From the NCBI GenBank assembly GCA_013816265.1, contig JACDES010000001.1:25636-89635 (forward strand): a DNA stretch of 64,000 nt, in the 5' to 3' direction. Under the pieces are notes generated by a model that was not told where the DNA came from, made no database searches, and worked only from the letters and a program-made list of their open reading frames with translations. Below are positions 13,401-53,152 of the stretch, piece by piece. The DNA comes from Parachlamydiaceae bacterium (lineage in GTDB: Bacteria > Chlamydiota > Chlamydiia > Chlamydiales > Parachlamydiaceae). The translations under genes and the position numbers were made by a program. Position 1 is the first letter of the stretch. Every line of letters starts with the position of its first letter.

Positions 13401-14437
13401 CCAGTCAAAGATGTGGAATCTTGGTTTTGATCTCGAATGGGTATTAAGTTATTAATTTTCTTAGAAGAAAATCCTTTGACTCTAATAGCGACATCCCCTT
13501 TTTCATCCATTATTTCTACATCGAATTTAACTATCGTATTATCTTGCTTAACATCTTGGATTTTACGAATTAAAGACCAGAGGTTATCTGTGATATTGTT
13601 ATTAATTACCATTTCATCCATGGCAAATGCAATTGTTCCAGATGAATGCTCATGATCAGTAAGAAATCCAATAGAAGCATGAAAGGATGCGTCTAAAAGT
13701 GCAGGATGTAAATCATATTCACTATTACCTTTAATAGATGATGGCCGTGTTATTTTGGCAATAACACTTTCATTCCCTTGATAGATTTCTTCCACGTATT
13801 GAAAAGAAGGGCCGTAAAGAATACCCATCTTTTTTAAAGAGGAGTAACATTGCATGGATGTGATTTTGTTAAGGGAATGATCAATTAAAGTTGATACATT
13901 GTATGTAGGTAGTTGCTGTCTTGGTTCTAGAGCAATTTTACCTATACAATAAATGGATTTTGATGAATCAACCTCGCTGAATATTTCAAAAGAAGCTCTT
14001 TTTTCATCTGAAAAATCCAATTCTAATTTTAGTTCTTTTGAATTGTCAATAAATTCAAAGGATTTGAGCCAATAAACATCTTTTAATGTAATACTATATT
14101 GATTTAAATTTTTATAGTCTTTGAGTTGATCGACAAAAGCACTATAAGCCATTTCTAAATACACAACTCCTGGTAGAATTGCTCTTCCTGAAATGATATG
14201 ATCAGTTAAAAAAAATTCCTTACCATCAAAGGGAATTGTATATTTGTGGATATTTGGGGGGGGGATTTCTTCTTTTAGAGACGATGTCTTTTTATTATAT
14301 TCCTTGATTAATGTAAGAGCTTCAACTTTAGAAAGTTTTTTGTTTTTAACTTTTTCGAATATTTCTTTATGAAATCGACTCATAAATATACCGGGAAGCT
14401 CTATTTTAGTATTTTTCTTGAAAAATAAAATTTTCAA
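4415..14437 (-). CDS. Trans-AT polyketide synthase subunit 4: DH-KR-MT-ACP | KS-KR-ACP | KS-ACP-ACP
   Basis: 3340-aa ORF. The track start is TTG 14437; ATG at 14383 ('MSRFHKEIFEKVKNKKLSKVEALTLIKEY', docking-like) is the more likely start. Motifs found:
- DH 'LTDHIISGRAILPG' (His80) and 'LHPALLD'.
- KR 'IIGGAGGLGELW' (~12750).
- C-MT 'ILEIGAGTGG' (~11480) and 'ATNVLHAT'.
- ACP Ser1237 'YGIDSIL' (10727-10729).
- KS Cys1496 'DTMCSSS' (9950-9952), 'EAHGTGTELGD', 'NIGHLE'.
- KR 'ITGGCGGLG' (~8010).
- ACP Ser2416 'LGFDSISL' (7190-7192).
- KS Cys2652 'NTSCSSG' (6482-6484), 'THGTATKLGD', 'NFGHT'.
- Tandem ACPs Ser3141 (5015-5017) and Ser3267 (4637-4639), both 'LGLDSIIGVEW'.
No AT or TE motif. Confidence 0.95.
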   Translation of the reverse strand: MKILFFKKNTKIELPGIFMSRFHKEIFEKVKNKKLSKVEALTLIKEYNKKTSSLKEEIPPPNIHKYTIPFDGKEFFLTDHIISGRAILPGVVYLEMAYSAFVDQLKDYKNLNQYSITLKDVYWLKSFEFIDNSKELKLELDFSDEKRASFEIFSEVDSSKSIYCIGKIALEPRQQLPTYNVSTLIDHSLNKITSMQCYSSLKKMGILYGPSFQYVEEIYQGNESVIAKITRPSSIKGNSEYDLHPALLDASFHASIGFLTDHEHSSGTIAFAMDEMVINNNITDNLWSLIRKIQDVKQDNTIVKFDVEIMDEKGDVAIRVKGFSSKKINNLIPIRDQNQDSTSLTGNIVLLPLWDAIEVPEIPNEQSKKSHLLVVGGSHFDRFSLIKNPSCQDCLIDDSDDLETAVDRLPPKKNWDQIVWICKQKNTQKINIDTLEDENLFQLFRDIKTLLKKGYGTRNLEWIIITKQAQAVQSNDSLHTVDSTIHGFVGTLSKEYPNWKIKLIDSERDVEIPWVDIFKLNSDPLGNAKIFRKGVWYQQNFIQYKINANTSTPYRNGGVYVIIGGAGGLGELWTEFMIVNYNAQVIWIGRRDINHEIQSKIDRLSKLGPKPLYLIADAADEQLIQKAYHEIKNSYKQINGVIHSAVGQMDLSLANMEESYFRNGLKSKLEGSLTVTEVFGNEPLDFLLFFSSMASFTKDHGKSSYCSGCLFQDSLAYELAQKKTYPVKVINWGYWGDVGIGAIIPQSFKNRLSKSGIVAIDVEHAMQTLQFFIKSDFEQLIYFKTTQPFSINDIIVKESLHSVINKSTLTNQFPKLLKQPIDIKIYACDAKIKEMEKLLKQLLYVQLKDLRAFVKNSDLDKKIKKEIHRRWVNESIRFLEKERLLSKTKLIDTNEVWSRWEAKGKEWINDVEIKSHFRLVDITLRSLPNILLGKEMATNVMFPNGSMEMVEGVYKNNLIADYFNKGIATLVTEHIRDLKEKIRILEIGAGTGGTTSLVLPELAKYKDKILEYCFSDISKAFLINAENTYGQQYNFLTYKLFDVSQSPASQEMSPGTFDIVIATNVLHATKNIRQSIRNVKNVLKKDGLIILNEINKNSIFTHLTFGLLDGWWLYEDPSIRIPCCPGLSSDSWNIVLQEEGFHQIIFPLNDAQTLGQQIVVGQSNGLVREMLYYKNKKISKNPQEDISIKFSPQPREISNELRERSVNYFKKLLSNTIRIPLAKINSSEPLESYGIDSILIVQLTSAIKDKLENVSNTLFFEYQTIDKIVDHLIATQAEGMYKLVGLSISENEKTIEIEKKQDVINDKKIPETHSKDNEQDNLIAIIGMSGKFPQSKNLDEYWENLKNGNDCITEIPSERWSLDNFYDSDKQSAILSGKSYSKWGGFVEDFANFDSLFFNISPKEAMNMNPQERIFIECAWSALEDAGYTKKLLAKKCNNNVGVFAGITRMGYELYGPEIWKKGGLQFPHTSFSSLPNRVSYLLNLNGPSLPVDTMCSSSLTAVHEACEYLIRKECRMALVGGVNLYLHPANYVALCALQMLSKYGHCRSFGKDSDGIVLGEGVGVIVLKPLSEALKDNDNILAVIHSTGINHGGKTNGYTVPNPIAQGDLIRKVLDKGNISAKSISYVEAHGTGTELGDPIELSGLTEAYRQDTNERNYCSLGSVKSNIGHLESAAGIAGIIKIVLQLQNKQIVPTLHAKDINPNIDFSRTPFYLQQQLSVWRTPLVEKNGGSVNEARLAAISSFGAGGSNAHVILGEHISSESNKEFNSSNHVILLSAKNKEALKDQAKNLLLKIKSENYDDSKLLSISYTLQVGREAMEERIGFVVKNISELTNSLQLILSDFENVASEFYVGSVRNKTQIVTIFENDSELLQVIHKWLNNKNYSKLLELWVNGVNIDWEEFYGNDLPKRMSLPTYPFTKERYWIKDILDKPKDNIGSAETTLRTFEEYWEPIQLVPAKKINNIVCLGLNENRKELVLRQLKVLAPECIFNFASDENELKLISRKVKIDSIWYFGALENSDLRKEYGHLVELLKSIHRLGISGTLLIPFEGDPLEMCYGLSWIGFEKSIGLVFQNLKISMIYDWGKIDLSEWISRLWIVVRLEKIESLKYKKGQAHRLSLKPYNVKTMPSLLRKNATYIITGGCGGLGLLFAEYITKKVFKVNLILCGRSPLDGKKNKSIKELEALGASVLYLQADVSDAQQMKDGIHKAKSQFGEINGVLHLAGLQGRNNLLEKEFSEFEEIIAPKIQGTQILDELLNGDSLEFVCYFSSAAAILGDFGSCDYAVGNRFQMAYSEFRKTTKKACKTVVINWPLWKEGGMGFADDHGTQLYLKTSGKRLLEGKEGAPLFDALLSQQESQFLVLAGNEDQIHLDNPQDVEVILNKDLKNQISTILSITTEKIDEEANLADLGFDSISLTTLAHQLSNFYQISLTPSIFFAHATVKKLTSYLFTTHKETIENFYQLKTAFIKIKPPKEIQPTQSLNEPIAIIGMSGRFPGARNIEELWQILIEGKETITEIPSDRFDWRDYYGDSANDPQKSNCKWIGAIPGVKEFDHTFFGISPKEAKMLDPRQRLLLQEGWKALEDAGYGKNDFERLKIGVYIGVEQGDYQNLNKEKDSNVTSNHEAILASRLSYFLNLDGPVMAINTSCSSGLVAIHQACNSLRNGECDTALAGGVSLTLSPEVFVAMAQAGMLSEDGKCYTFDQRANGMVPGEAVATVVLKRLSQAIEDKDSIYAVIKASGLNYDGKTNGITAPNGEAQAKLIKSIYEKNHIEPEQIEYIVTHGTATKLGDPVEVNALIDAFNHKGHCALTSTKTNFGHTFAASGVINLITLTLSLYNKKIPKSLNFENGNEYINWKDSPFYVNEKTQGWNKPKRLGAVSAFGMSGTNVHMILENYDQEVTFEKQSSYLFFLSAKTEKSLEAKTKELIDYLENEDDLTSISYTLIEGRQHFEYRKAVVASNKKEAIEKLAVKGKKANKSDKEISIQTTTEEELKKIAELYVEGYTPRWKVNHQKCHVPTYPFERNEFWITDASKNDVKRTDCLIINKHQPLQHKLNGTTHSLAKPTGITLKNFGNENEKLKSITKSEPEPSLIAKEKSLVESKDMLLELAESLSRVLDIEMEELHTNEKFVDLGLDSIIGVEWIRAINKRYGTNISATKVYDYPTLDEFQNFLKVEITKKKGGETVILETLVRDDKVIHVSSLKDRANLSSPIAVSRIIEPQVNGKQSDEILNELVLSLSNALDMNSNDVDINENFLNLGLDSIIGVEWIRSINKKYSVSIPVTKIYDYPTLLDFSKFLVTELSNNKKTLLEMLEDVYSGKLNVDKANQELNLLIT
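4520..5125 (-). other. Tandem ACP didomain with beta-branching Trp flag (end of PKS subunit 4)
   Basis: 'FVDLGLDSIIGVEWIRAINKRY' and 'FLNLGLDSIIGVEWIRSINKKY' both carry Trp at Ser+6. The other ACPs in the cluster lack it. Confidence 0.7.
11018..11740 (-). other. C-methyltransferase domain of PKS subunit 4
   Basis: SAM-binding motif I 'RILEIGAGTGGTT', 'FDIVIATNVLHAT' and 'LKKDGLIILNE', located between the KR and the ACP. Confidence 0.8.
13448..14251 (-). other. Dehydratase (hot-dog) domain at the N-terminus of PKS subunit 4 (split module: the KS is on the preceding protein)
   Basis: HxxxGxxxxP motif 'HIISGRAILPG' and 'DLHPALLDASFH'. Confidence 0.75.
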
Positions 14438-14564
14438 AGTATACTTGTATCACACAAGGAGCAATGACTGCAAAGTCATTCTCAAGATAAATTTTGATAG
14501 CGATTTTTTCATTTGATATGTAAATTAATTTTACAAACACTATAAAAAGTTGTAAGGATCTGAC

Positions 14565-15812
14565 GTGCTGAATGATAAGTCTTTATATTTTGGAAACATA
14601 AATAGATTTAATCTCAAAAAGAGTTTTCTTTTAAAATTTTGGAAATTAGCAACTTTCCCCATTTGGTTTATCTATCATGGAATATCATGCCTTGTAAAAT
14701 ATGGAATTCAAAAGAAAATAGTGGAGTTAAAGCCTCCAGGTCCTAGAGGCCATATTTTGTTAGGAGTTCTTCCTGAACTTAACTCCAACTCACTTAATTT
14801 TATCAATAGCCTTTGGCAAACATATGGGTGTCAAGAAGGTATTTGCAGATATTCAATTTTCAATGAGACGGCCTATTTAGTAACCAAACCAGAATACTGT
14901 CAATCGATTGCCCAAGATTCTGAAACATTTATTAGAGGAAGATCAATTGAGAAGAAACGAAGGATCTTAAGTGATTCTTTTTTTACACCCGACGGGGCAA
15001 TCAGCAAACAAAAACGTAAAGAATGTATGCCGCATCCAAATAATAATAGAATTGATGAACATCATTATACAGTGATTAAAGAAGCATGCGAAAAAACAAT
15101 CATCCGTTGGAATAAATTAATTGAAGAAGAGGAAGAAAGAGAAATTGATGTGTTGGAAGAAATGTCTAAATGCACAAGCGATGTTCTCACTACATTCTAC
15201 GCGGGTCACGACGCAACAGGCCTATTGCTTATGTGGTCTATCTACGAATTGTCGAGACGATCAGAAATTTATGTAAAATTGAATAATGAGCTCAATCAAA
15301 ATGTTAAAGATGATGTACCTACTTTCGAAGAAATTTCTAATTTAACCTATTTATCTAAAGTTATCCAAGAAGTTCTACGAATCTATCCATCTCTTCCAAT
15401 TATTGTAAGAGACGTGATAAAAGATACTTTTTTGGGTAAATATCCAATTCGTAAAGGTAGCACAGTTTTAATAGGAGTAGCGCAAATAGGTCAGGATGAT
15501 AAAAGATGGGATAACCCATCTGAATTTAATCCTGAAAGGTTTAATGACGAATTAATCTATAAAGTCGATCCATATGATTTAAATCCTATTGGAGGTGGTC
15601 TCTATCTTGGTGCAGAGCAATCACATGGCCACATAGAAGCAAAAGTAATTTTGGCTTCTCTCATCAAAAAGTTCAATTTCTCATTAAAAGAAGTAGTCCG
15701 CCCTATAATGAGAGGAACGTTACACCCCGAAAAAAACGTACAGGTAACTCTTAGAGATAATAGGAAACATCCAGTAGGTAGAATACCACCTAAAAGAATT
15801 TCTAACTACTGA
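14565..15812 (+). CDS. Cytochrome P450-like protein, eukaryote-type N-terminus, internally shortened and lacking the heme-thiolate Cys (possible relic or pseudo-enzyme)
   Basis: 415-aa ORF, GTG start with AAGGA 8 nt upstream. It has:
- an N-terminal hydrophobic anchor, then 'KPPGPRG';
- I-helix 'FYAGHDATG';
- ExxR 'EVLRIYP';
- 'FNPERF'.
Where FxxGxRxCxG is expected the sequence reads 'PIGGGLYLGAEQ'. There is no Cys in the last 200 aa. The spacing from PPGP to the I-helix is ~155 aa, against ~260 aa in typical P450s. Confidence 0.6.
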   Translation: MLNDKSLYFGNINRFNLKKSFLLKFWKLATFPIWFIYHGISCLVKYGIQKKIVELKPPGPRGHILLGVLPELNSNSLNFINSLWQTYGCQEGICRYSIFNETAYLVTKPEYCQSIAQDSETFIRGRSIEKKRRILSDSFFTPDGAISKQKRKECMPHPNNNRIDEHHYTVIKEACEKTIIRWNKLIEEEEEREIDVLEEMSKCTSDVLTTFYAGHDATGLLLMWSIYELSRRSEIYVKLNNELNQNVKDDVPTFEEISNLTYLSKVIQEVLRIYPSLPIIVRDVIKDTFLGKYPIRKGSTVLIGVAQIGQDDKRWDNPSEFNPERFNDELIYKVDPYDLNPIGGGLYLGAEQSHGHIEAKVILASLIKKFNFSLKEVVRPIMRGTLHPEKNVQVTLRDNRKHPVGRIPPKRISNY

Positions 15813-16079
15813 GATTGATAGTGATCGTTTGTTGTTTTGGTAAATATGTTGTCCATAATTTTTTCTAAAGAAAGCTCCCTCTGTTAGGCCTGAAAGGCTG
15901 GTATGAAATAGCCCAGGTCGCAGTAAAGCGAAGGCTTGGGTCAATGCAAACAATTTACTGAGTCCTTAGGATGGCATAGGATACGTACCCAATAATTGAC
16001 GTAAGGAAATCCGCGTAAATATAATAAAGATTGGGCTCGTAATGCTACTCAAATATGCAACGAAGTGCTTTCTTATAAA

Positions 16080-19000
16080 TTATCTCAACCCATAAATATC
16101 AACTAATTCTAATGCTTCATCAACTGAAACACTCCCCTCGATTAAGCCATCCAGTAAATCTTCATATTTTTCCAATTCAATTTGTTCCTTCGTCTCAGGA
16201 GTTGGTAAATTATATCGCTCCTTATTAAATGGATAAGTTGGCAAACTGATCCTTAGTGGTTTTTCTTCTATATATAAGAGATTCCAATCGATCGAAGTCC
16301 CATTCACCCATAATTTTGCCAACGAACTAATTTTTCTCTTCTCCAACCAAGTTTTAATTAAACTAGGAAAATCCTCATCATTTGAGAAATTAGACATACC
16401 TTCTTTATTATTCTTTACATTTCCAAAATAGATATGAGATGCATTATTTGTATTTTTATTACTTAAAAACATATGCAATTTATCTATCAATTCTTCTCTA
16501 GTTTCAACAATAAATCCCAATCGAAATTCCATCGCTTTTCTACCAACTTGAAGTGTGTATGCGATGCTTTCTAAACTGTCATCACGTGTCAATTCTTCCT
16601 GCAAATAACTTAACAACTGATCAACTTTTTTACACAACACGTCTTCTTCTTTAGCTGACAGCAGAATTAGATAGGGTCCGGAATTTGATCTCATTATTTT
16701 TGTAGTGATATACTCTTCAATAATAACATGAGCATTAGAACCACCGGCACCAAACGACGAAATACCACCAATACGAGGAAGTTCTATTTTTTGCCCCGTC
16801 GAATTAGTCTCGAGACGTTGATTCCAAGTTTCTAATTCATTTTGTATTTTAAAAGGGGTTTTTGCAAAATTAATATTTGAGTTTGGAGTCTCTGCATATA
16901 AAGTCGGAAACAATTTTTTATGATATAATTGCAACACCAACTTTGTAACTCCAGCAATCCCTGCTGCTGCTTCTAGGTGTCCTATATTAGTCTTTACTGA
17001 TCCTAAAGAACAAAATCCTTTTTCCTGCGTGTCTCGTTCAAAGGCTTTTGTCAAGCCCGCTACCTCAATTGGATCCCCTAACTCAGTTCCAGTGCCATGC
17101 GCCTCAATGCACGATAAATGATTTGCCATCAATCCAGCCTTATCTAAAGCTTTTTTAACCAAATCTGCTTGTGCATTAGGACTTGGAACTGTATAACCAT
17201 TGGTTTTTCCTCCATGGTTTATACTTGTCCCCTTTATAACCCCATAAATATGATCATTATCTTCGAGGGCATCAGATAATCGTTTTAATAGAATCGCTCC
17301 AACCCCTTCACCAGGTACAAATCCATTTCCTCCTTCTCCAAAACTTTTGCACTTTCCATCTGTCGACAACATTTGAAGAGAACTTAACTCAACGAAATTA
17401 GAAGGATGCATATATAAATTCACCCCTCCTGCAAAAGCCATTTTGCACTCATCTCGTAGTAAATGTTCACAGGCTTCATGAATTGCTGTCAAGGAAGATG
17501 AGCACATTGTATCTATAGGCATACACGGACCACCTAAATTTAAAACATAGGACACCCTATTTGCAACAGAACCAAAAGATGTTCTGGGATGAAGTGTTTC
17601 ACCGCTGCGCCATAGATCTGGCCCATATAATTCATAACCAGTTTTTGTAATTCCTACAAAGACCCCTACATCACGATCAAATTTATTTACCAATTCCTCT
17701 GGACTGTATCCAGCGTCTTCAAGTGTCTCCCAGCATACCTCAAGAAATTGTCTTTCCTGCGGATCCATATTGATGGCTTCTAATGGAGATATATTAAAAA
17801 ATAGAGGATCAAAACAATCATGATTGTCTAAAAAACCACCCCACTTTCCATAACTGTTTCTTTTCTTTAAGGCTTTGTCCTTATTTGCTTCGTAAAAGTT
17901 TTCCAAGGACCATCGATTTGCCGGAATCTCTGTAATACAGTTACGACCATTCTCCAAATTCTTATAATATTCTTTTAGATTCTTTGCTTTAGGATAGCGC
18001 CCACTGATTCCAATAATTGCAATTGGCTCATTTTCTTTTTTCTTATCCGACTTTTGTTTTATCATTCTTTCATTATCATTTTTCAGAGTACGTTCTTCCA
18101 ACTCAGCTTTTGTGTTTGTCCACTTCATGCATTGTTTTTCAAATTTCGTTAAAAAATAATCTGCCAATTGATCCAATGTTTGAAATTCAAACAATAACGT
18201 TTTAGGTAGATCTCCAAAAATATGAGAGAATCTTTCATTCATGTTTGTAATCAGTATAGAGTCAATCCCATATTGATCTAATGATTGCAGTGGATCGATG
18301 TGCGAATAATCTAAATTCGTACAATCACAATAAATCTGAATTAACCGATTTATCACGTTCTTCTTTAAAGAGGAGGTGTTATTTATTTTATTAACGCTGG
18401 AATTAGCCTGTTGAATGCTTTTGTAGCCACTTAAAACGTGCAGAGCCTTTTCAAATGCGTAAGAAGGTAAAGGAATTTTGGCTGGTTTTTCATTGGGGTA
18501 AAATGATAACCAGTCTACATCCTTTCCCTGCACCCATTTTTCTGCTAACAATTCTATTTCATTCAAGGAAGTGAATTGCCCCTCAGATATGTTTAAATTA
18601 CTTTTAAATATCGATTTCGATTGTTTATTTATAAGTAATAATTCCAGTTTCGAGATAAATTCATTAAGATTATTTGCAACAATTGCGATACGATATTTTA
18701 ATGGTTCTTTACCAGTCTGGAGTGTATATAATAAAGAGGGTAGTCGTATCTCATTTATATCATACAACTTATATTCCTGTATTTTTATGTAATTCAGTAA
18801 TTTATTTACATATTCGTGAAGCTGTTTTTCTGTTCTTGCAGAAATGGGTAATATATTAATTCCAATTTTTTCAGATTGCATATTTGGAATAGCATATTCA
18901 TCAAGAACAATATGACCATTTACTCCACCATAACCAAAGTTATGAATCCCTATCCTGCGCTTCTTTTTAACACCATTAATACTCCTAGGAATCCACGATT

Positions 19001-19628
19001 TTGTTTCATTACATATCTCGCAAGAAAGAGGGCCATCTTCATCATTATTCCAATTAATCTGTTCAAAATTTAATACCTTTGGAATGCAATTATTTTTCAA
19101 AGTCAGAATCGCTTTAATAAGAGCTGTGATTCCTGAAGCAGATCCTAAATGTCCCATATTCCCCTTAATTGTACCTATGGTTACAGGATTTCCAGACCGA
19201 TTTTCGAAAATGCTATTATAAACAGCTAATTCCATTTTATCTGTCATAGGGTCAGCAGTTCCTTGTGCTTCGATATAGTCAATGTCGTTTGGCGTTATTC
19301 CTGCTTCTTCATATGCTGAATGAATTACTTCGCGATGAGAGTTGGGGTTTGGTGCAGTCAAATACATGCTTTTGCCACCATGCTGGACACTTATGCCACT
19401 CATTACTCCATAAATATGATCATTGTCTTTAATAGCGTCTGAAAGTCTTTTTAATAGAACTAATCCTGCTCCTTCTCCGTTCAAATGCCCAGTCGCATTA
19501 ACATCGAATGGTTTCATCATATTTTCCGGAGTTAGCATCTTCAATTTTCTATTAATGATAAATGTCCATGGAGATAGTAGCACATTGACACCACCTGCTA
19601 AAGCTACATTAATTTTTTTATTTCTCAA
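16080..19628 (-). CDS. Trans-AT PKS subunit 3 (continuation of the interrupted KS): KS0(C-terminal part)-ACP | KS
   Basis: 1182-aa ORF (the track start is TTG).
- The reading frame is actually open up to 19700 and encodes 'KGPSIAVDTACSSSFAALD' (Cys at 19668-19670), directly in frame after the TAG at 19701-19703.
- The KS lacks the HGTGT His ('IEAQGTADPMTD', Gln at 19263-19265) but keeps 'NMGHLG', so it looks like a non-elongating KS0.
- ACP Ser457 'YGIDSIL' (18258-18260).
- KS Cys709 'DTMCSSS' (17502-17504), 'EAHGTGTELGD', 'NIGHLE'.
- C-terminal docking-like tail. Confidence 0.85.
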   Translation of the reverse strand: MRNKKINVALAGGVNVLLSPWTFIINRKLKMLTPENMMKPFDVNATGHLNGEGAGLVLLKRLSDAIKDNDHIYGVMSGISVQHGGKSMYLTAPNPNSHREVIHSAYEEAGITPNDIDYIEAQGTADPMTDKMELAVYNSIFENRSGNPVTIGTIKGNMGHLGSASGITALIKAILTLKNNCIPKVLNFEQINWNNDEDGPLSCEICNETKSWIPRSINGVKKKRRIGIHNFGYGGVNGHIVLDEYAIPNMQSEKIGINILPISARTEKQLHEYVNKLLNYIKIQEYKLYDINEIRLPSLLYTLQTGKEPLKYRIAIVANNLNEFISKLELLLINKQSKSIFKSNLNISEGQFTSLNEIELLAEKWVQGKDVDWLSFYPNEKPAKIPLPSYAFEKALHVLSGYKSIQQANSSVNKINNTSSLKKNVINRLIQIYCDCTNLDYSHIDPLQSLDQYGIDSILITNMNERFSHIFGDLPKTLLFEFQTLDQLADYFLTKFEKQCMKWTNTKAELEERTLKNDNERMIKQKSDKKKENEPIAIIGISGRYPKAKNLKEYYKNLENGRNCITEIPANRWSLENFYEANKDKALKKRNSYGKWGGFLDNHDCFDPLFFNISPLEAINMDPQERQFLEVCWETLEDAGYSPEELVNKFDRDVGVFVGITKTGYELYGPDLWRSGETLHPRTSFGSVANRVSYVLNLGGPCMPIDTMCSSSLTAIHEACEHLLRDECKMAFAGGVNLYMHPSNFVELSSLQMLSTDGKCKSFGEGGNGFVPGEGVGAILLKRLSDALEDNDHIYGVIKGTSINHGGKTNGYTVPSPNAQADLVKKALDKAGLMANHLSCIEAHGTGTELGDPIEVAGLTKAFERDTQEKGFCSLGSVKTNIGHLEAAAGIAGVTKLVLQLYHKKLFPTLYAETPNSNINFAKTPFKIQNELETWNQRLETNSTGQKIELPRIGGISSFGAGGSNAHVIIEEYITTKIMRSNSGPYLILLSAKEEDVLCKKVDQLLSYLQEELTRDDSLESIAYTLQVGRKAMEFRLGFIVETREELIDKLHMFLSNKNTNNASHIYFGNVKNNKEGMSNFSNDEDFPSLIKTWLEKRKISSLAKLWVNGTSIDWNLLYIEEKPLRISLPTYPFNKERYNLPTPETKEQIELEKYEDLLDGLIEGSVSVDEALELVDIYGLR

Positions 19629-20216
19629 GGCTTGTACAGCTAAATCTAATGCAGCAAATGAACTTGAACAGGCAGTGTCGACAGCTATACTTGGTCCTTT
19701 CTAACCAAAATAATTTGATATCCTATTCACAAGCATAGAATGTGTATTTCCAGTATTCACATACCCATCAAGCTCGTTATTAGAATTTATTATTTTTTCC
19801 AAATATTCATTTTTTTCTACGCCAACAAAAAGTCCTATTTTGTTATTAAATAGAGATTTTTTTGTATATCCGCCATTTTCAATTGTTTCCCAAGCCAATT
19901 CAAGTAATATACGATGTTGAGGATCCATCAGAATGGCTTCTTTTGGGGTAATACCAAAATGGAGTGCATCAAATGCGTAAATATCATCCAAAAAAGATCC
20001 ATGATAGCAATCAGTTTTGTCATTTTCTTTAGGATCTCCAAAGTGTTTTTTCCAATCCCACCGTGACTCTGGAACCTCTTTTAATACAGATTTTTCTTGT
20101 ACCAAATAATTCCAAAAATCGTTCAAATTATTGCTTGAGGGAAATCTTCCTCCAATACCTATTATGGCAATGTCATCTTCAGATTTTTTTTGGGGTCTTT
20201 CTTCCTTCAATACTGC
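18893..20216 (-). other. KS domain (KS6, KS0-type) interrupted by an in-frame TAG at 19701-19703
   Basis: The minus-strand reading is ...NRISNYFG-TAG-KGPSIAVDTACSSS... Other KSs here read NRISYFFNFKGPS and ARIAYHFNLKGPA, so the stop sits at a conserved Leu/Phe position. Confidence 0.85.
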
Positions 20217-23200
20217 ATCTTTAATGGGTTGTTGATTAAAGTTATTTTGGTATTTATCAACAAGAAACTTAGATAATGATTCAATCGTGGAAAACTCTAG
20301 AAAAGTTGAAGCACTAAGATGCATGAACGGATAATCAGTGGTGATTTCTTTTGCAAATTCTGTTAATGTCATCGAATCGAAACCAAATTCACTTAAATTT
20401 GTACAAGAATCTAAATCTGATTCGTTGATTTTTAGAACTTTAGAAATCCGTTGTTTTAAAGAAGCCTCAATTTGATTATTTGAATTCATATTAAACTGCC
20501 TTTCCTTAGGCTGATTTTTTTTGATGTATTGTATTTCCCAATCGAATTGGATCGCATTACCAAAGAATTGACAAGCACCAAGATATTCATCTTTGGTAAT
20601 TTCATTATGCTGTAATAAATTGTCTAGTGATTGCTGGCCAAGTCCTGCAAGTATCCTCAGTTTGAGTTGTTTTAGCTTTGGTTCATGTTCTTCTGTCTTA
20701 CTATATGAACTCTTACGATACATTTCTAAATATTCATTTGCTTTATCAAATGAATGCTCGCCCATCAGCCGATTAATCATTGGAAATGCAGGCAAATTAA
20801 TTAATGACCAAAATTTCTTAAAAGATACTTTTGGATCCGGAATCAAACCTAATTTTAATCCTAAAACAATATTTGAGATAGATCCCACAAGTCCTTGATG
20901 CGCATCTGAAATACGGTAATTTAATTCCTGAATTGTCAATTTATATTTTCCAGAAAGAACTCTTGCATACCAACGTGCAACCATTTCAGAATAGAAAAAT
21001 TGTCCGGAATAACCTATAGCGACTTGACTCGCAGTATTGACCAATGAAGGGTCTTTTGAATAAAAAATTCCTAAAGAAAAATCTTTTAATAAAGAAATAT
21101 TTTTTAAGTATTTGGCATCCTCCTGAACCTTATATCCCGTGCAAAAGACGATTAAATCAATTTTTTCATGTCTAGCATCATTCAAGAGACATCCATCTGA
21201 GGTGATTCTAGATATTTCGCCGACGGTATGGATTTTCTTTTGTGCAACCAAATGAACAATATTATCGTTTATTAAAATGGTAGAGTGATCATTTAAATCC
21301 TTCTGGCTTGGTAACAATCCACTTTGGACATATGATTCATAATATTCGGGCATTGATCTTTTTAAACGTTCAACTTGATTACTACGATTTTCCGGATTCA
21401 ATAAATTTGCAACCGATACACAATCATTTGGAATAAATCCTACCATGCGAGGTAATATCAATTTTAAGGATCTAAAGCTCCATAGGACCTTTTTTGCTAC
21501 ATGGGAAGCTTCCTCAGCTATATCCATGCCACTTACACCATTTCCAATAACTAAAACATTTTTGTCTTTGAAATTTGAATTATCAAAATATTGCCCTGAA
21601 TGGATAATTTCGCCCTGAAACTTTTCCAATCCTTCAATTTGTGGAATATGCGGATGCCAATACATCCCTTGACACATTGCTACCCCATCAAAAAATTCCT
21701 TTTTTACATTTCCTTCACGATTGATTTCAACTTCCCACCCATTTTCAGATTTCTCTACTTTAGTAACCTCGGAATGAAAATTTAGATAATTATTTAAATT
21801 AAATTTTTTCGCATATTCATTAAGATATAAATTCACATCTTCAACAGAGTAAAAGATGCTTTTTAAATCATCGAGATAAAAATCTGAAAATGTACTTGTA
21901 AATTTTGATGTTTGAAATCGTGTTTTCTTATACGCACCAGCAGTTTTGTTCTTTTTCAAATTCCAAACGCCCCCAATGGTATTCAGTCTTTCAAAGATGA
22001 CCGGTTCATGCCCTTCTTCTAATAAAGATTTAGCCATGACTAAACCCGAGGGACCTGCTCCGATGACACAAATTCTTTTTTTAGTTTTTATATCATTATT
22101 TAATTCATGAATAGGAGAACTAATAAAAGGATAAGAGGGCAAAGATATTTTTGTTTTGATATCTGGATGCAAAAATTTCCAATCTATATCAATATGCTTC
22201 ACCCATAATTCTGCAAGTGCTTTGATATCATTTTCATTCAGAAACTGTGCTTTTGCTTTTTCGATCAATTTATCATCAATGTCTGTTTGTCCGCTTTTGC
22301 TACCAATAAAATAATCTGAATTTGGGTTTGTGCCTTTCAAAAAATTCGAAATTTTATAAAGTAATTCATCACGATTTTTTGCAGAAAAAATTATTCGTTC
22401 TTTCATCGACGATCGAGCAATTTGTAGGGTATATGCAATATTTTCCAATTCAATGTTGGGATTATTTAATATAAACGCACTTAAATTTTTTACCATTTCT
22501 TTCAATGTGTGCAAACGCTTTGCCGATAAAGGAAATAAGAATAAATGATTGACATCACGCTTAAGTATTGTTGTAGGTTTAGGTAGATATTCTTTTATAA
22601 ATGCAAATGCATTAGTACCACTCATACCTGTTGCACCTATCAAACCTTGGCGAGGATTAACTTCTGGGTTCCTCCAATTTATTCCCTCATTGCATATTCC
22701 AAAATCAGCATCTTCAAATTCTTTTAAGGGATCTTTTACATCAGTTGCAGGAATGAATTGATTTTTTAACATTAAGATAATTGCGATCAAATTAACAATT
22801 CCAGAAGCAGCAAAACTATGGCCAACAATTTGTTTGATAGATCCAATGCCAAATGAAATGCCACCTGACTTATCAAATACTTTTTTATATGCTTTTAATT
22901 CAGATACATCTCCCAAAGTTGATCCAACACTATGAGCCAGTATAAAATTAATATCTTCTAGAGCAATATCATTTCGTTTTATTATTTTGCGTAATAGTTC
23001 AGTCTGAGCCTCTGAATTTGGTGCGGTAATTCCCAGCGTTTTGCCATCATAATTAATTCCTGTTCCATTGATGATGCAATATATATTATCTCCATCTCTT
23101 TCAGCTTCGCTTAAAGGCTTTAAAACAACAGCCACGACTGCTTCGCCAGGTACTAGTCCAGTTGCATTAGGATCAAAAGGTTGGCATTTTCCATCTTTCG

Positions 23201-26200
23201 ACAAAAAGCCCATCTTATTCAACATCGAATATGTGGTTGGAGAATAATTTAAGCTAACACCTGCCGCTAGAGCTATCTCACATTCACCATTTAATAACGC
23301 ATTGCAAGCTTGATGTAAAGCAACCATGCTAGAAGAACAAGCGGTATTGATGGATAGATTTGGTCCTGTAATATCTAAATAATGGGAAATACGAGCAGCC
23401 AATATTGCGTTATGACAACTTGTCGCATTCTCTCTTGTTTCTTGATTATCACCAGAGTCTGAATCTTCAACTCCAACATAAACTCCAAAGGGCTTTCCTG
23501 CTATTGACTTCCCAGTATAGCCAGCATTCTCAAATGCTTTCCACGACTCTTCTAATAACATCCTTTGTCGTGGATCCATCAATTCAGCATCCCTTGGAGA
23601 TATCTCAAAAAAAAGTGGATCGAAAGAATCTATATCATTTATAAATGCCCCTTTTAAACACTCTTTATCTAAGGAATCATCGTTCTGATTTTGATAGTTT
23701 TTCCAGCTCTTGCGCTCAGTCGGTATTTCCCCTATTTTAGTCTTATTTTTAATGAGTACATCCCAGAATTCCTCAATGTTATTTGCTCCGGGAAACCTTC
23801 CTGATATCCCTATGACAGCAATTTTTTCTTGATTTTTTTCACTAAAGGATTTTTTGTTAACTGAAGTGGAAACAAATTCTTTATCTTCACCTCTGGCCTT
23901 TGTTTGCAATAATGGCGTTGGATTTTTGCTTAGCAGATTTGATAGTTTTTGGAGAGTGTTATGAGTAAAAAGGTCAGAAAGCTGCAATTCAGAGCTAAAA
24001 TGTTTATTAATTTGTTTGGCGAATTTGGTCAAACTAATGGAATCAAATCCAAATTCAGCTAACAATGCATCATCATCAAGATATTCTTCTTTGATTTTAA
24101 GTAGCGAGGATATCATCGCTCTGATTTCTTTTTTTACATCATCTAGATCAGAAATAACTTTTACAGTTAATTTTTCATTAGACTCTTCGACGTGGTATTT
24201 TCTTTGTAATATTTCTTTAATTCGTGCCGGATCACCAGGAATAGCTAGTAAGGCATCTAAAGGGCTAGATAAAGAAGATTCGAAAATAGAAATTCCTTCA
24301 CTTTTTTCTAAAAACCTTTGACCACTGGTTTTCAGATACATAGAAGCTCTATCAAGGTCATCAAGGCCCATTCCACCTTCTTTCCAGAAAGGCCAATTGA
24401 TTGCAATCGTTTTTCCCTTCCTTTTGCCAGCCTTTACAAGTTTGTTGCGATAATGTGAATAAGACATTTGAAATCTATTAGAAACAGCATAATCACATGC
24501 TCCAAAGTCCCCTAAAACTGCTGCTGAAGACGAAAAATAACAAATAAAATCTAAATCTAGATCCTTGGTAAATTCATCTAATAATATAGTTCCTTCAATT
24601 TTAACATTCAAATGATCTGAAAATGCAGAAAGGTTTTTATCATATAATCCCACTCTTGAGTCAATTCCGGCACAGTGCAGAAGGCCATTAATATGAAGAT
24701 ATTTACTATTTATCGCTTCAAAAAGGATTTGCATTTCAGATCGGTTTGCGATGTCTACATTATAGTATTCGACAATTTTTGTTCCTGAATGATTTAATTC
24801 CTTAAGAAAGTTTAGAATGTCATTATTTAGTGGCCTTTTACCAAATAAAATTAAATTTGCAGAATATTCTTTTGCTAAATGTTTAGCAAAGATTTGCCCT
24901 AATCCCCCAAAACCACCTGTGATAAGATATGTTCCATTCTTATTTATTGGAATAGAGATGTTTTGTTTCAATTCTTCATGTGCAAATGTAAGTCGATACC
25001 TTTTATTGTAATTATATTTAATGTTTCCTAATTGCCACAATTCAACCCATAATTTATTCAGATCAACTTCGGTATTTTCGAACGTGAGTGTGGATATATT
25101 AATATTGGGGGAAAGAAGAGCGATTGTCCTTTCAAAACCAATCCAAGATTCACTATAGCAATCCTTAATCGTATTTGAATTTTTAGAGATTAGTAAGATT
25201 TTGTTAACAGTTGAAAATTTTTGACCAATTCCTTTTAATAACAGGAAAATAGATTCGATACTCTTTACCTCTTCATTTTCTCCCCACCTAAACACAATTT
25301 TTACCGGGATAGAGTCATATATAATACCCTCAAACAATTTTAAATAATCCTCGAGAATATCTGGAGCAATCTCATAGATAGAATTCGTCACCTTTTTATA
25401 ACTTATTCCTTTGGTCACCAAAATGAGGCTATGTTTTTCGGACTCTTTCTCTAATATTTCTCTAAATGATATATAGTCTGCATCGTCATTACTAAAATAG
25501 ATAATTTTTGAAGCAATTTTTGGAAATTGAACGGATTCTTTTTCTTCCCATATTTCCTTATATAATGTTAATGGTGAAGAAGGATTTTCCAATTCATGAG
25601 CAATTACAGATTGACTAATTTTCTTTTCTATAAGCTCAGGAACAATATACACATTTTTTTTAAATGGATAAGTAGGCAAGGAAACGCGGTTAGGTTTAAA
25701 TTTTGGATACAGAAGATTCCAGTCTATCGTTGTTCCTTGCATCCAAATATCTGAAATCTTTAAGAAGTCCCTTGCTTCGATCCACTTATGAATCAAATCG
25801 TTATCCGCTTTCTCATAAACAATTTCTTTTTTGGGATTCACTCTATTTGTCTCAATAAAAGAAGTGATTTTTGCCAGTAAATCACTTTGATTTTGTACTA
25901 CGAAAGCAATTCTTTTTTCCATTGCATCTCGCCCTAATTGTAAGGTAAATGCTAAATCAGAAAGAGAAACATCCTTATTATGTTTTAAATAGACTAGAAG
26001 ACTTTCCGCGTATTCTTTCAATTGCTTGATATCTTTGGCTGAAATAACAACGATATAGTCTGTGTCAATTTCGTTAGTATTTCTTTTCATATTTGTTTTA
26101 ATATACTCTTCAATTACAAGGTGAGCATTTGTTCCACTAAATCCAAACGAACTTACACCAGCCCTTAGTCTACTATTTAGATTATTCGTCCAAGATTTAC

Positions 26201-27524
26201 ATTCTGTATTGACATACATGGGTGAATTAGAAAAATCGAAATGTTCATTAGGTGTTGAGAAATTCAATGAAGGGACAAGCATTTTATTCCTAAGACATAA
26301 TAATACTTTATGAATACTGGCTACTCCAGCAGCCGCAGATGTATGCCCGATATTTGTTTTTAATGAACCGATTGCTAGATGATGTTTAGGGACACCTTTA
26401 TTTTGATAAACGGTGGATAACGCATCTAATTCAATTGGATCTCCAAGTTTTGTGCCCGTACCATGCATTTCAACATATGAAATTGTTTTCGGATCGATAC
26501 AATTTCTTTCATAAACATCGTTAATTAATGTCGTTTGACTATTAGCACTTGGAGCCGTGATTCCATTAGTTTTTCCATCTTGATTTATTCCAGAAGCAAT
26601 AATGACACCATATATAATATCACCAGCCTTTTCAGCATCATCCAAACGCTTAAGAACTATTGCACCAACACCCTCTCCAGGAATAAAACCTGCTGCTTGA
26701 TTATCAAAAGCTCTGCATAATCCATCAGAGGATAGCATACCTGCTTTTGACATGCTAATATATGACTCTACATTAAGATAAAGAGTGACTCCTCCTACTA
26801 AAGCTAAATCAATTTCACCATTATTTAAACTTTGACATGCCAGATGTGTTGCAACGAGAGAAGATGAACAAGCGGTGTCAATAGATATCGCTGGTCCTTT
26901 CAGATTAAAATGATAGGCAATCCTCGCAGAAGCTATTGCCAAGCTATTTCCTGTGATATTTACTTCTTCTGATTGAGTCTTATATAACATTTTGGCATAT
27001 TCAGATCCCATAATACCTAAATAAACACCGCAACGATGATTATTTAATTGTTTTTTTGTATAACCTGCATCTTCAAAGGCTTTATAGGCTTCTTGTAGAA
27101 AAATTCGTTGTTGGGGATCTATTCCTTCAGCATCTGCAGGAGCAATATTAAAAAACTGAGGATCAAATTCATAAGCACCTTCTATGAATCCTCCCCATTT
27201 ACAATTGGTCTTACCCTCTTTATTTTTATCATGATCATAGTAGATAGATGAATCCCAACGTTCCTTGGAAACTTCTGTAATACAATTTTTACTAGTTACA
27301 AGATTATTCCAGAAATCGGATAAATTTTCAGCTCCGGGATATCGTCCAGCTATTCCAACAATCGCTATTTTATTCGAGTAATCATGTTTTTGAATATTAT
27401 TTTGATCTTGTGCAACTTGTAAGGGTTCTTTAGGAGGTGTTTTTTTCTTAGTTATCAGCGCTTCAGCCTCACTCAAACTAAGTTCACCTTTACGAAGAGC
27501 TAATAATATATCCTTAGAATCCAT
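19701..27524 (-). CDS. Trans-AT PKS subunit 2: KS-KR-ACP | KS-FMO-ACP | KS(N-terminal part, truncated by TAG)
   Basis: 2607-aa ORF.
- Docking-like N-terminus 'MDSKDILLALRKGELSLSEAEALI'.
- KS Cys219 'DTACSSS' (26868-26870), 'EMHGTGTKLGD', 'NIGHTS'.
- KR 'ITGGFGGLG' (~24920).
- ACP Ser1162 'FGFDSISL' (24039-24041).
- KS Cys1396 'NTACSSS' (23337-23339) with atypical 'LAHSVGSTLGD' and 'KQIVGHS'.
- Flavin monooxygenase domain ~aa 1815-2340.
- ACP Ser2384 'FGFDSMTL' (20373-20375).
- The first ~170 aa of another KS ('DDIAIIGIGGRFPS...'). Confidence 0.95.
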   Translation of the reverse strand: MDSKDILLALRKGELSLSEAEALITKKKTPPKEPLQVAQDQNNIQKHDYSNKIAIVGIAGRYPGAENLSDFWNNLVTSKNCITEVSKERWDSSIYYDHDKNKEGKTNCKWGGFIEGAYEFDPQFFNIAPADAEGIDPQQRIFLQEAYKAFEDAGYTKKQLNNHRCGVYLGIMGSEYAKMLYKTQSEEVNITGNSLAIASARIAYHFNLKGPAISIDTACSSSLVATHLACQSLNNGEIDLALVGGVTLYLNVESYISMSKAGMLSSDGLCRAFDNQAAGFIPGEGVGAIVLKRLDDAEKAGDIIYGVIIASGINQDGKTNGITAPSANSQTTLINDVYERNCIDPKTISYVEMHGTGTKLGDPIELDALSTVYQNKGVPKHHLAIGSLKTNIGHTSAAAGVASIHKVLLCLRNKMLVPSLNFSTPNEHFDFSNSPMYVNTECKSWTNNLNSRLRAGVSSFGFSGTNAHLVIEEYIKTNMKRNTNEIDTDYIVVISAKDIKQLKEYAESLLVYLKHNKDVSLSDLAFTLQLGRDAMEKRIAFVVQNQSDLLAKITSFIETNRVNPKKEIVYEKADNDLIHKWIEARDFLKISDIWMQGTTIDWNLLYPKFKPNRVSLPTYPFKKNVYIVPELIEKKISQSVIAHELENPSSPLTLYKEIWEEKESVQFPKIASKIIYFSNDDADYISFREILEKESEKHSLILVTKGISYKKVTNSIYEIAPDILEDYLKLFEGIIYDSIPVKIVFRWGENEEVKSIESIFLLLKGIGQKFSTVNKILLISKNSNTIKDCYSESWIGFERTIALLSPNINISTLTFENTEVDLNKLWVELWQLGNIKYNYNKRYRLTFAHEELKQNISIPINKNGTYLITGGFGGLGQIFAKHLAKEYSANLILFGKRPLNNDILNFLKELNHSGTKIVEYYNVDIANRSEMQILFEAINSKYLHINGLLHCAGIDSRVGLYDKNLSAFSDHLNVKIEGTILLDEFTKDLDLDFICYFSSSAAVLGDFGACDYAVSNRFQMSYSHYRNKLVKAGKRKGKTIAINWPFWKEGGMGLDDLDRASMYLKTSGQRFLEKSEGISIFESSLSSPLDALLAIPGDPARIKEILQRKYHVEESNEKLTVKVISDLDDVKKEIRAMISSLLKIKEEYLDDDALLAEFGFDSISLTKFAKQINKHFSSELQLSDLFTHNTLQKLSNLLSKNPTPLLQTKARGEDKEFVSTSVNKKSFSEKNQEKIAVIGISGRFPGANNIEEFWDVLIKNKTKIGEIPTERKSWKNYQNQNDDSLDKECLKGAFINDIDSFDPLFFEISPRDAELMDPRQRMLLEESWKAFENAGYTGKSIAGKPFGVYVGVEDSDSGDNQETRENATSCHNAILAARISHYLDITGPNLSINTACSSSMVALHQACNALLNGECEIALAAGVSLNYSPTTYSMLNKMGFLSKDGKCQPFDPNATGLVPGEAVVAVVLKPLSEAERDGDNIYCIINGTGINYDGKTLGITAPNSEAQTELLRKIIKRNDIALEDINFILAHSVGSTLGDVSELKAYKKVFDKSGGISFGIGSIKQIVGHSFAASGIVNLIAIILMLKNQFIPATDVKDPLKEFEDADFGICNEGINWRNPEVNPRQGLIGATGMSGTNAFAFIKEYLPKPTTILKRDVNHLFLFPLSAKRLHTLKEMVKNLSAFILNNPNIELENIAYTLQIARSSMKERIIFSAKNRDELLYKISNFLKGTNPNSDYFIGSKSGQTDIDDKLIEKAKAQFLNENDIKALAELWVKHIDIDWKFLHPDIKTKISLPSYPFISSPIHELNNDIKTKKRICVIGAGPSGLVMAKSLLEEGHEPVIFERLNTIGGVWNLKKNKTAGAYKKTRFQTSKFTSTFSDFYLDDLKSIFYSVEDVNLYLNEYAKKFNLNNYLNFHSEVTKVEKSENGWEVEINREGNVKKEFFDGVAMCQGMYWHPHIPQIEGLEKFQGEIIHSGQYFDNSNFKDKNVLVIGNGVSGMDIAEEASHVAKKVLWSFRSLKLILPRMVGFIPNDCVSVANLLNPENRSNQVERLKRSMPEYYESYVQSGLLPSQKDLNDHSTILINDNIVHLVAQKKIHTVGEISRITSDGCLLNDARHEKIDLIVFCTGYKVQEDAKYLKNISLLKDFSLGIFYSKDPSLVNTASQVAIGYSGQFFYSEMVARWYARVLSGKYKLTIQELNYRISDAHQGLVGSISNIVLGLKLGLIPDPKVSFKKFWSLINLPAFPMINRLMGEHSFDKANEYLEMYRKSSYSKTEEHEPKLKQLKLRILAGLGQQSLDNLLQHNEITKDEYLGACQFFGNAIQFDWEIQYIKKNQPKERQFNMNSNNQIEASLKQRISKVLKINESDLDSCTNLSEFGFDSMTLTEFAKEITTDYPFMHLSASTFLEFSTIESLSKFLVDKYQNNFNQQPIKDAVLKEERPQKKSEDDIAIIGIGGRFPSSNNLNDFWNYLVQEKSVLKEVPESRWDWKKHFGDPKENDKTDCYHGSFLDDIYAFDALHFGITPKEAILMDPQHRILLELAWETIENGGYTKKSLFNNKIGLFVGVEKNEYLEKIINSNNELDGYVNTGNTHSMLVNRISNYFG
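20505..22082 (-). other. In-line class B flavin-dependent monooxygenase (FMO/BVMO-like) domain within PKS subunit 2
   Basis: Motifs:
- 'RICVIGAGPSGLV' (FAD GxGxxG).
- 'FQGEIIHSGQYF' (FxGxxxHxxxY, the FMO fingerprint, ~21585-21620).
- 'VLVIGNGVSGMDIA' (NADPH GxGxxG).
- 'VFCTGY'.
The domain lies between a KS and an ACP. Confidence 0.8.
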
Positions 27525-47297: not shown

Positions 47298-47476
47298 GAA
47301 ATTTTCAATAACCCTTCAATTTTTGGGGATCACGGTGTAAAATTAATAAAATAATAGGGTTCTTAATATGCTATGGAAGCTGAATGAGCGTCTTTATAAT
47401 GAAAGCGAAAGAGGGCTTTCCTGTTGGAGAAGTTATCGGCAGGCGCATCTCTCATTTTTAAGACCAATTCCTTATA

Positions 47477-48916: not shown

Positions 48917-49067
48917 TTTAGGAATTAATAATTATTAAAATATTACATTATAATTTACAGTAACCCAACAAAAAAAACAATAAAAATTTTAGTTAAATAA
49001 ATTGAATTAAAGATATATTCTCTTTTACCAAACTAAAAAAGTTGAGTATTTTTTAGTGCAAATAAAG

Positions 49068-53051: not shown

Positions 53052-53152
53052 GCTACTTGCGATCTAAAATGTGAATTTTGAACATGTTCGTTTTATAAAG
53101 AATAATAAAGCCGCCTCTAATTAAATACCAGCATAAACTGTTTGGTAATTGA

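Follow-up and report, generated by a model that had tools for sequence, protein, structure and literature searches.

Integrated oxygenase modules are among the few means to alter a polyketide backbone or to add reactive groups during chain growth, and each module type that has been characterised became a prediction rule as well as an engineering part. Among polyketide synthases of the trans-acyltransferase type (trans-AT PKSs), 69 systems with such oxygenases (Ox) have been catalogued and divided into a trans-acting OocK/PedG/TobD clade performing Baeyer–Villiger (BV) oxidations, LbmC-Ox, which also performs a BV oxidation and is found together with a methyltransferase (MT), a spliceostatin Ox clade to which epoxide formation has been assigned, LbmA-Ox with a proposed role in oxime formation, and further integrated clades without assigned function (Ueoka et al. 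2020). LbmC-Ox and LbmA-Ox belong to different clades in that study, and the BV modules (OocK, LbmC-Ox) have been reported without a bimodule layout of oxygenase and KS0, a ketosynthase (KS) that does not elongate the chain. As integrated Ox domains, the structure of the LbmA Ox-acyl carrier protein (ACP) didomain and the spliceostatin Ox are already published, the kind of domain is known and not rare. Here we describe an Ox domain integrated into a trans-AT PKS that is encoded in a 64-kb stretch of contig JACDES010000001.1 from a Parachlamydiaceae bacterium, called the window in the following. With a rough probability of 0.4 this Ox would perform an on-line electrophilic oxygenation, most likely a spliceostatin-like epoxidation of a beta-branch olefin, within an Ox-ACP-KS0 bimodule. 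All coordinates follow the numbering of the window, and PKS features are located on the minus strand unless stated otherwise.

The Ox domain (20505–22112, minus strand, residues 1805–2340) is part of a trans-AT PKS protein of 2607 aa encoded by the open reading frame 19701–27524 (minus strand), as seen from the list of reading frames and its translation; the plus-strand translation of 20505–22082 is riddled with stops. A preliminary description of the window had placed the domain at 20505–22082, which corresponds to residues 1815–2340. The Pfam match to PF00743 (flavin-containing monooxygenase (FMO)-like) covers residues 1815–2199 with an E-value of 1.5e-57, above the cut-off, and the conserved domain exceeds this match, as residues 1805–2340 align end to end with the relatives and include a C-terminal helical extension of ~140 residues that is common to the crystal structure PDB 8ODW. 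Along the protein the Pfam order is KS, ketoreductase (KR, 864–1049), ACP (1133–1198), KS, PF00743, ACP (2346–2432) and the N-terminal part of a further KS. Together with the domain maps this bears out the earlier view of an FMO domain embedded between a KS and an ACP of PKS subunit 2, in a module without KR and followed by a KS0-ACP module.

All fingerprints of class B flavoprotein monooxygenases are present in the order given before. The FAD-binding GxGxxG motif GAGPSG (22044–22061) is invariant in our alignments A1 and A2, and the FMO-type fingerprint FxGxxxHxxxY, FQGEIIHSGQYF (21585–21620), has F165, G167, H171 and Y175 conserved in A2, as are the NADPH-binding GxGxSG motif GNGVSGMD (21522–21545) and FCTGY (21132–21146), the "TGY" motif of class B monooxygenases. 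FMOs carry the fingerprint FxGxxxHxxx[Y/F] and type I Baeyer–Villiger monooxygenases (BVMOs) FxGxxxHxxxW[P/D]; the fingerprint found here ends in Tyr and is the FMO version, not that of type I BVMOs. In HMMER alignments to AncFMO5 and AncFMO1, Gln67 of the Ox domain (21912–21914, within RFQTSK) takes the place of the catalytic Asn that animal-type FMOs carry in NTSKE; this Asn stabilises the hydroperoxyflavin and is absent from the window domain. As the same Gln is invariant across all PKS Ox domains aligned (A1, A2 and A3), the alignments identify it as a family trait of this group and not as a sign of decay.

Among solved structures PDB 8ODW is the best match (E = 8e-171, 49% identity over the whole 530-residue domain), followed by the ancestral FMO5, FMO1 and FMO2 (E = 1e-49 to 1e-41) with AncFMO5 being the next-best, whereas type I BVMOs such as PAMO and CHMO only reach E-values of about 1e-16 to 1e-12 across the N-terminal 200 residues. 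An AlphaFold (AF2) model of the domain (pLDDT 72.7, pTM 0.73) superimposes on 8ODW with a TM-score of 0.90, and in a Foldseek search the ancestral animal FMOs come next (probability 1.00, TM-score 0.68–0.69). These data establish the domain as a class B flavoprotein monooxygenase in which the FAD and NADPH motifs are intact and the fold is that of 8ODW. Decay of the domain was considered and rejected, since it keeps 119 of the 121 positions whose conservation reaches at least 95% in the superclade of PKS Ox domains described below. One of the two changed positions is also changed in the orthologue P0004, and functional members of the superclade deviate at 0–8 of the 121.

In order to collect relatives, 1.84 billion representatives of 50%-identity clusters were searched with HMMER, resulting in 382 matches below 1e-30. 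The best 20 representatives share 45–62% identity over ~525 residues, all lie within proteins of 893–7059 aa, and probe-based mapping identified every one of them as a multidomain PKS protein with the Ox behind a KS. Integration had been regarded as comparatively rare, a view that does not hold in light of these 20 PKS-embedded representatives and the 69 catalogued systems. Named relatives are found in Archangium violaceum, Spartinivicinus poritis, Agrobacterium vitis, Xanthomonas cannabis, Mycoavidus, Mycetohabitans, Pseudomonas, Chromobacterium and Burkholderia alba, and a tblastn search of plasmids revealed a PKS Ox with 46% identity in Burkholderia sp. FERM BP-3421, the producer of FR901464/spliceostatin. 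The relative from X. cannabis belongs to a spliceostatin PKS as well (Helfrich et al. 2021). No free-standing PKS-linked FMO was found among the close relatives (150 best representatives and named homologues), and cluster look-ups of free-standing matches yielded no named PKS oxygenase. A scan of genome contigs with over-general patterns returned only unrelated FMOs, and NCBIfam holds no specific model for the PKS Ox domain. Many plasmids of Escherichia, Salmonella and Klebsiella (H6–H40) carry a free-standing FAD-dependent oxidoreductase with 31% identity across 95% of the Ox including the C-terminal extension, whose gene adjoins that of a SemiSWEET transporter.

A maximum-likelihood tree was reconstructed from 55 Ox domains, with a quick version of 74 rows; OocK, PedG and LbmC-Ox are not among the rows. 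The window domain is located inside a superclade of PKS Ox domains (tier 1) with 100/100 support and a long stem, to whose members it shows 44–62% identity. The preliminary description had named clustering with FMOs from outside PKSs, together with lost cofactor residues, as evidence against its assignment; what we find is a position within the PKS Ox superclade and intact motifs. Five groups can be distinguished in the superclade: an LbmA-type group (19 rows, 100/100) including 8ODW, a spliceostatin-type group (97/99) of Fr9, X. cannabis and one metagenome-assembled genome, a group of terminal modules with the order KS0-Ox-ACP-(KS0)-thioesterase (12 rows, 99/93) including Archangium, a group (ii) of nine metagenomic representatives (100/100) and a group (i) formed by the window domain and the metagenomic P0004 (100/100). 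Groups (i) and (ii) are united with a moderate support of 85/66, and the deeper branching is weak (52–65% bootstrap). The window Ox is outside both the LbmA-type and the spliceostatin-type group, and the tree thus places it in the known superclade of integrated Ox domains but in neither of the functionally assigned groups. P0004, a protein of 7059 aa, shows the domain order of subunits 2 and 3 of the window fused in one protein, and its KS0 is intact.

A scan of metagenomes gave 0 matches with a single-protein query and nine loci with alignment A2 as query, six of which were used (three of group (ii) and three others). One metagenomic locus (L095, BFBZ01000261.1, about 8123–19584) encodes a PKS with two successive Ox domains, KS0-Ox and then ACP-ACP-Ox-KS0-ACP-KS-KR-ACP; both belong to a more distant tier-2 group, and we found no description of such a double oxygenase module in the papers considered here.

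The groups also differ at a few positions of a candidate pocket. LbmA-type domains carry N, D, R and F at positions 68, 71, 150 and 278, whereas groups (i) and (ii) carry T, F/Y, M and T. With T, F and M at the first three, of which position 68 adjoins Gln67, the window domain is similar to the spliceostatin group (T, H/Y and L/A). A carbon-chain substrate would be in keeping with a candidate pocket that is less polar than in the LbmA type, which oxidises an amine.

To evaluate the module context, 116 KS domains from Ox-bearing proteins were aligned and their tree was built. The KS in front of the window Ox, called KS* here (22569–23828, residues 1233–1652, connected to the Ox by a linker), keeps the catalytic Cys, His and His in NTACSSS (23328–23348), AHSVGS (22920–22937) and IVGHS (22815–22829). 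Around these residues, however, it is strongly altered: HGTGT now reads HSVGS, KSNIGH lacks its Asn, the gatekeeper Phe of SFG is replaced by Thr (GATGMSGTNAF, 22605–22637) and NAH has changed to NAF. The same four changes (HGTGT to HS[VA]GS, loss of the KSNIGH Asn, SFG to ATG and NAH to NAF) occur in 11 of 11 sequences, whereas all other KSs in the set, the KS0s with Phe or Tyr included, keep an aromatic gatekeeper. KS* descends from elongating KSs, and its sister group is the KS3 type that feeds beta-branching ACPs (support 99); the KS* clade itself is small, comprising the window KS and the relatives P0004, P0006, P0007 and P0188–P0200. In condensing enzymes of the FabF/FabB type the gatekeeper Phe takes part in malonyl entry and decarboxylation. 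Given the loss of this residue, its sequence makes it unlikely that KS* is an ordinary condensing KS, and with HGTGT and KSNIGH altered as well, a beta-keto substrate for BV chemistry is doubtful. Neither Pfam nor the domain maps show a KR, an MT or a dehydratase (DH)-like domain between KS* and the Ox module's ACP. The earlier expectation that this module presents a beta-keto thioester is therefore only half retained: the KR is indeed absent, but beta-keto formation is not assured with such a derived KS.

The ACP of the Ox module (20229–20489, residues 2346–2432, Pfam PP-binding/ACP_SdgA_C) is fused straight behind the Ox and is followed by the post-Ox KS0 (18876–20177). This KS0 reads Cys-Gln-His, with DTACSSS at 19659–19679, EAQGTAD at 19251–19271, where Gln replaces the first His, and GNMGH at 19149–19163. 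In every case analysed the KS after Ox-ACP is such a Gln-type KS0 (EAQG..), and all of them, from LbmA-type, terminal, tier-2 and group (i)/(ii) contexts and including the window KS0, form one clade (support 99). Group (ii) loci show the layout Ox | ACP-KS0(EAQGTAD)-ACP-KS, and Fr9 shows KS-Ox | KR-ACP-ACP-KS0(EAQGSGD)-DH. As a Gln-type KS0 of one clade is always found behind Ox-ACP, also in these layouts, Ox-ACP-KS0 is a conserved unit. The KS ahead of the Ox differs from group to group, being canonical in spliceostatin, a His-to-Gln KS0 in the terminal modules, of the E[AT]TCSSS type behind an adenylation-peptidyl carrier protein (A-PCP) pair in LbmA, and KS* in groups (i) and (ii). In each group (i) or (ii) protein that is long enough to tell, a KS-KR-ACP module precedes KS*, so that both groups have the block KS-KR-ACP / KS*-Ox-ACP / KS0-ACP in common. 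One module further upstream, at position n-2, group (i) has a beta-branching module and group (ii) a DH with an intact HxxxGxxxxP motif.

From this context we propose that KS* takes over a beta-hydroxy chain from the KR module and, probably without elongating it, loads it onto the Ox module's ACP. The Ox would then form the C4a-hydroperoxyflavin from NADPH and O2 and give one oxygen atom, as an electrophile, to the ACP-bound chain, the likeliest reaction being an epoxidation (or a hydroxylation) of the olefin that the beta-branching module, two modules before, has left in the chain. KS0 would finally pass the chain, now oxygenated, to the following ACP and from there to KS7 (16821–18110), a canonical elongating KS with DTMCSSS and EAHGTGT and the acceptor of the Ox bimodule's product. 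The donor is the KS4-KR-ACP module (23925–27374, with KS4 at 26085–27374, KR at 24375–24944 and ACP at 23925–24140), which hands over a beta-hydroxy intermediate. If KS* only transfers the chain, the Ox would meet a 3-hydroxy chain with the branch olefin at C4/C5 and thus a substrate like that of the spliceostatin Ox, which also acts on a beta-branched chain oxygenated at C3. In Fr9 the order is a beta-branch module, KS-Ox | KR-ACP-ACP and KS0, and in the window it is the beta-branch module KS3-ACP-ACP with its HMG-CoA synthase/enoyl-CoA hydratase (HMGS/ECH) cassette, KS4-KR-ACP, KS*-Ox-ACP and KS0. The architecture is compatible with a 3-oxygenated substrate in which a beta-branch olefin lies a few carbons away from the thioester, although the olefin itself is not visible in the sequence. 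Given the close parallel to Fr9 in layout and predicted substrate, we rank epoxidation or a related electrophilic oxygenation first, BV oxidation second and alpha-hydroxylation third.

Several points weigh against this assignment. It is drawn from sequence and context, and the reaction is a predicted one. KS* retains Cys, His and His and might still elongate the chain to a beta-keto thioester, and a module without KR is what is expected of BV or alpha-hydroxylation modules. In group (ii) the olefin would stem from a DH in a KR-less module, the activity of which is uncertain, and in the window the beta-branch may be an exo-methylene or an endo-methyl group. As KS7 and its group (ii) counterpart differ in KS type, KS7 grouping with KSs that come after KR modules and the counterpart being of another type, a KS-based prediction of the substrate is unclear. 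The weak backbone among the five tier-1 groups (52–85% bootstrap) gives no specific tie to the epoxidising group. Furthermore, the FR901464 PKS has a monooxygenase domain, presumably the Ox with 46% identity, that reportedly performs a BV oxidation from thioester to thiocarbonate in vitro.

The preliminary description had leaned towards OocK-type BV oxidation, which we regard as less likely than epoxidation for this module, though still as a serious rival. In such a reaction KS* would elongate the chain to a 3-oxo-5-hydroxy thioester, and a nucleophilic peroxyflavin would convert it into a malonyl ester (OocK orientation) or a glycolyl ester (LbmC orientation); after passage through KS0-ACP the result would be an in-chain ester or, following hydrolysis, a cleaved chain. 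The missing KR and the retained Cys, His and His of KS* agree with this, class B FMOs are capable of BV reactions with AncFMO5 as next-best solved relative, and OocK and LbmC-Ox prove that on-line BV chemistry takes place in trans-AT PKSs. The BV oxidation reported for the FR901464 PKS monooxygenase domain (Tang et al. 2013) would point in the same direction. As the substrate of a BV oxidation is a beta-keto thioester, elongation by KS* is a prerequisite, and this is in doubt for a KS without the gatekeeper Phe and the KSNIGH Asn. Moreover, no enzyme with demonstrated oxygen insertion into beta-keto thioesters falls into one clade with the Ox; those members of its superclade that have an assigned function make oximes or epoxides, and none of its close relatives is a free-standing PKS FMO. 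Its fingerprint is HxxxY as in FMOs and not HxxxW as in BVMOs, the OocK/PedG module type with pseudo-DH, free-standing FMO and split module is absent, LbmC-Ox modules bear an MT that is missing here, and an oxygenase-KS0 bimodule is not the reported layout of BV modules.

Alpha-hydroxylation would also need an elongating KS*, after which the enolate of the beta-keto thioester would attack the hydroperoxyflavin, giving a hydroxyl group at C2, and KS0-ACP would take over the labile product. An oxygenase module followed by KS0-ACP is the published layout of alpha-hydroxylation bimodules, and assays with OocM needed the KS0. MupA requires a beta-keto substrate, in keeping with an Ox module without KR, and LbmA-Ox oxidises the atom on C2 of a glycyl thioester (8ODW with ethyl glycinate), so that a site beside the thioester is reachable in this fold. 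Nevertheless, the alpha-hydroxylases known so far are of another enzyme class, in the papers considered here we found no class B Ox domain acting as an alpha-hydroxylase, and the derived KS* would again have to elongate. We consider this reaction rather improbable. Oxime formation was rejected, as the Ox lies outside the LbmA clade and an amine source is missing: no adenylation, condensation or aminotransferase domains were found in the window PKS proteins by Pfam. A less specific proposal, which we hold tentatively, is that groups (i) and (ii) represent a module type without assigned reaction, in which KS* serves as a non-condensing partner for delivery or scaffolding. The reaction could then be new for a class B Ox, for example an on-line epoxidation in which an allylic alcohol is prepared for closure of an ether ring, or an alpha-hydroxylation.

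The reading frame of subunit 2 (16080–27524, minus strand) encodes KS4-KR-ACP / KS*-Ox-ACP / KS0-ACP / KS7-docking tail according to the list of reading frames, the translations and the Pfam- and probe-based domain maps. It is a single frame with a TAG codon (19701–19703) as sole break, located within KS0 just upstream of the active-site Cys, and continues unbroken to 16080. The downstream piece contains the ACP of the KS0 module (18228–18419, residues 428–491 of this piece, Pfam PP-binding), which is the sole further domain of that module. The same truncated product of 2607 aa was found on two contigs, and the PKS line appears to be currently interrupted, or freshly broken, in this genome. 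From this one could conclude that the Ox is a relic, intact in sequence yet idle in a line that is broken by the KS0 nonsense codon and other lesions of the cluster, and hence part of a module without present function. The identical truncation on both contigs speaks for it, and a foreign, possibly decaying cluster would agree with the absence of any close counterpart from the 400 genomes searched in this phylum. Yet the 119 kept positions, and the change in common with P0004, imply that any inactivation would be very recent, and a split KS or read-through is possible as well. We give the relic explanation only a slim chance, and it bears on the present activity of the Ox, not on its chemistry; the epoxidation proposed above concerns the latter.

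The window contains a trans-AT-type PKS cluster with three giant PKS genes, all on the minus strand, an HMG-CoA synthase cassette that comprises three ECH genes as well as a decarboxylating KS, and in addition two P450s and two BAHD-like transferases. Subunit 1 consists of a loading region with a partial match to AprA MT2-like, an ACP, KS1-KR-ACP, KS2-KR-ACP and KS3-ACP-ACP, the latter with tandem beta-branching ACPs, and subunit 3 of DH-KR-MT-ACP, KS8-KR-ACP and KS9-ACP-ACP. Past the left edge of the window the PKS line goes on with an enoylreductase (ER)-KS protein of 2438 aa and a DH-ACP-KS protein, as seen on a contig of 87 kb that holds the same cluster (L098, GCA_020064125.1, record JAITZQ011376509.1). 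The contig numbers of that assembly exceed 1.3 million, which suggests that this bacterial contig sits within a very large assembly, probably of a eukaryotic host or a metagenome. Between subunits 2 and 3 a P450-like gene (14565–15812) is located on the plus strand. As P0004 has the matching PKS parts in one uninterrupted protein, both the split of the subunits and the inserted gene look derived in this genome. Elsewhere in the window two large proteins of 503 and 678 aa with eight DUF4116 repeats each are encoded on the plus strand (56591–60947), and several large open reading frames that adjoin them (46281–56291) have no Pfam match.

In the 400 genomes of the same phylum no close homologue of the PKS-type Ox was found, the best matches being free-standing FMOs of ~500 aa with 30–37% identity, and the PKS cluster is therefore probably foreign to the host lineage. 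The loci of the relatives have a G+C content of 52–56%, compared to about 33% here, which suggests an acquired cluster that has since been ameliorated. The host of this large trans-AT PKS, a chlamydia-type genome without counterpart among the 400 of its phylum, is an unusual one, and the apparently fresh break in the line limits its biological weight in this organism.

With the window, the Ox-ACP-KS0 cassette of lobatamide and spliceostatin is now found in a third context, KS-KR-ACP / KS*-Ox-ACP / KS0-ACP, which is present in at least 10 metagenomic clusters. As far as the literature considered here shows, this context of groups (i) and (ii) with KS*, the preceding KR module and a bare KS0-ACP appears to be without an assigned function; knowing its reaction would make structure prediction better for every cluster that contains it. 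As the studied members of the Ox family make oximes or epoxides, inserting oxygen into the chain is just one role among several conceivable ones, and our analysis corrects the tempting rule that an FMO in a KR-less PKS module stands for BV oxidation.

Compared with described oxygenases, the window module resembles the alpha-hydroxylation systems MupA/MmpA, OocM, CalD and the patellazole in-cis domain in that the oxygenase acts at an ACP just before a non-elongating KS0-ACP. These enzymes, however, are FMNH2-dependent, luciferase-like class C proteins, whereas the window Ox is a single-component class B enzyme using FAD and NADPH. The trans-acting BV oxygenases OocK, PedG, TobD and SbnP are likewise flavin- and NADPH-dependent and act on ACP-bound intermediates in modules without KR, but they are free-standing, encoded between two PKS genes and part of a split module KS, pseudo-DH | FMO | ACP-KS, a distinction made by description and not by sequence. 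With LbmC-Ox and the mandelalide Ox, which perform BV oxidations to glycolyl esters, the window Ox has in common that it is integrated into a KR-less trans-AT module. It differs from LbmC-Ox, compared here by description only, which works with a C-methyltransferase on an alpha-methyl-beta-keto substrate and is said to be without the KS0 bimodule layout.

Among these described oxygenases, the highest similarity is seen to LbmA-Ox, the Ox-ACP didomain of the oxime module of the lobatamide trans-AT PKS from Gynuella sunshinyii, whose identity is taken from the title of PDB 8ODW. Both share 49% identity including the C-terminal extension, a TM-score of 0.90 and the direct fusion of Ox and ACP, which in 8ODW has been crystallised as a didomain, and the LbmA-type relatives also have the Gln-type KS0 behind Ox-ACP and the same Gln in place of the FMO Asn. 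In contrast, LbmA-type modules are preceded by an adenylation-PCP loading module and have a glycyl amine as their substrate, whereas the upstream part of the window PKS is purely PKS and offers no amine. The window Ox is also located outside their 100/100 clade, carries T, F and M instead of N68, D71 and R150, and is preceded by a KS of unrelated ancestry.

The spliceostatin/FR901464 Ox from Burkholderia sp. FERM BP-3421 and X. cannabis shows 45–46% identity, belongs to the same superclade and acts on a carbon-only substrate. It has a beta-branching module shortly upstream and a Gln-type KS0 following it, and the residues at positions 68, 71 and 150 are the same or nearly so. Differences are found in the distribution of the domains, as one module of Fr9 unites the Ox, a canonical elongating KS and a KR, and the KS0 of Fr9 bears a DH-like domain, whereas in the window the KR is part of the preceding module, the pre-Ox KS is KS*, the KS0 module is completed by an ACP only, and the two Ox groups form separate clades.

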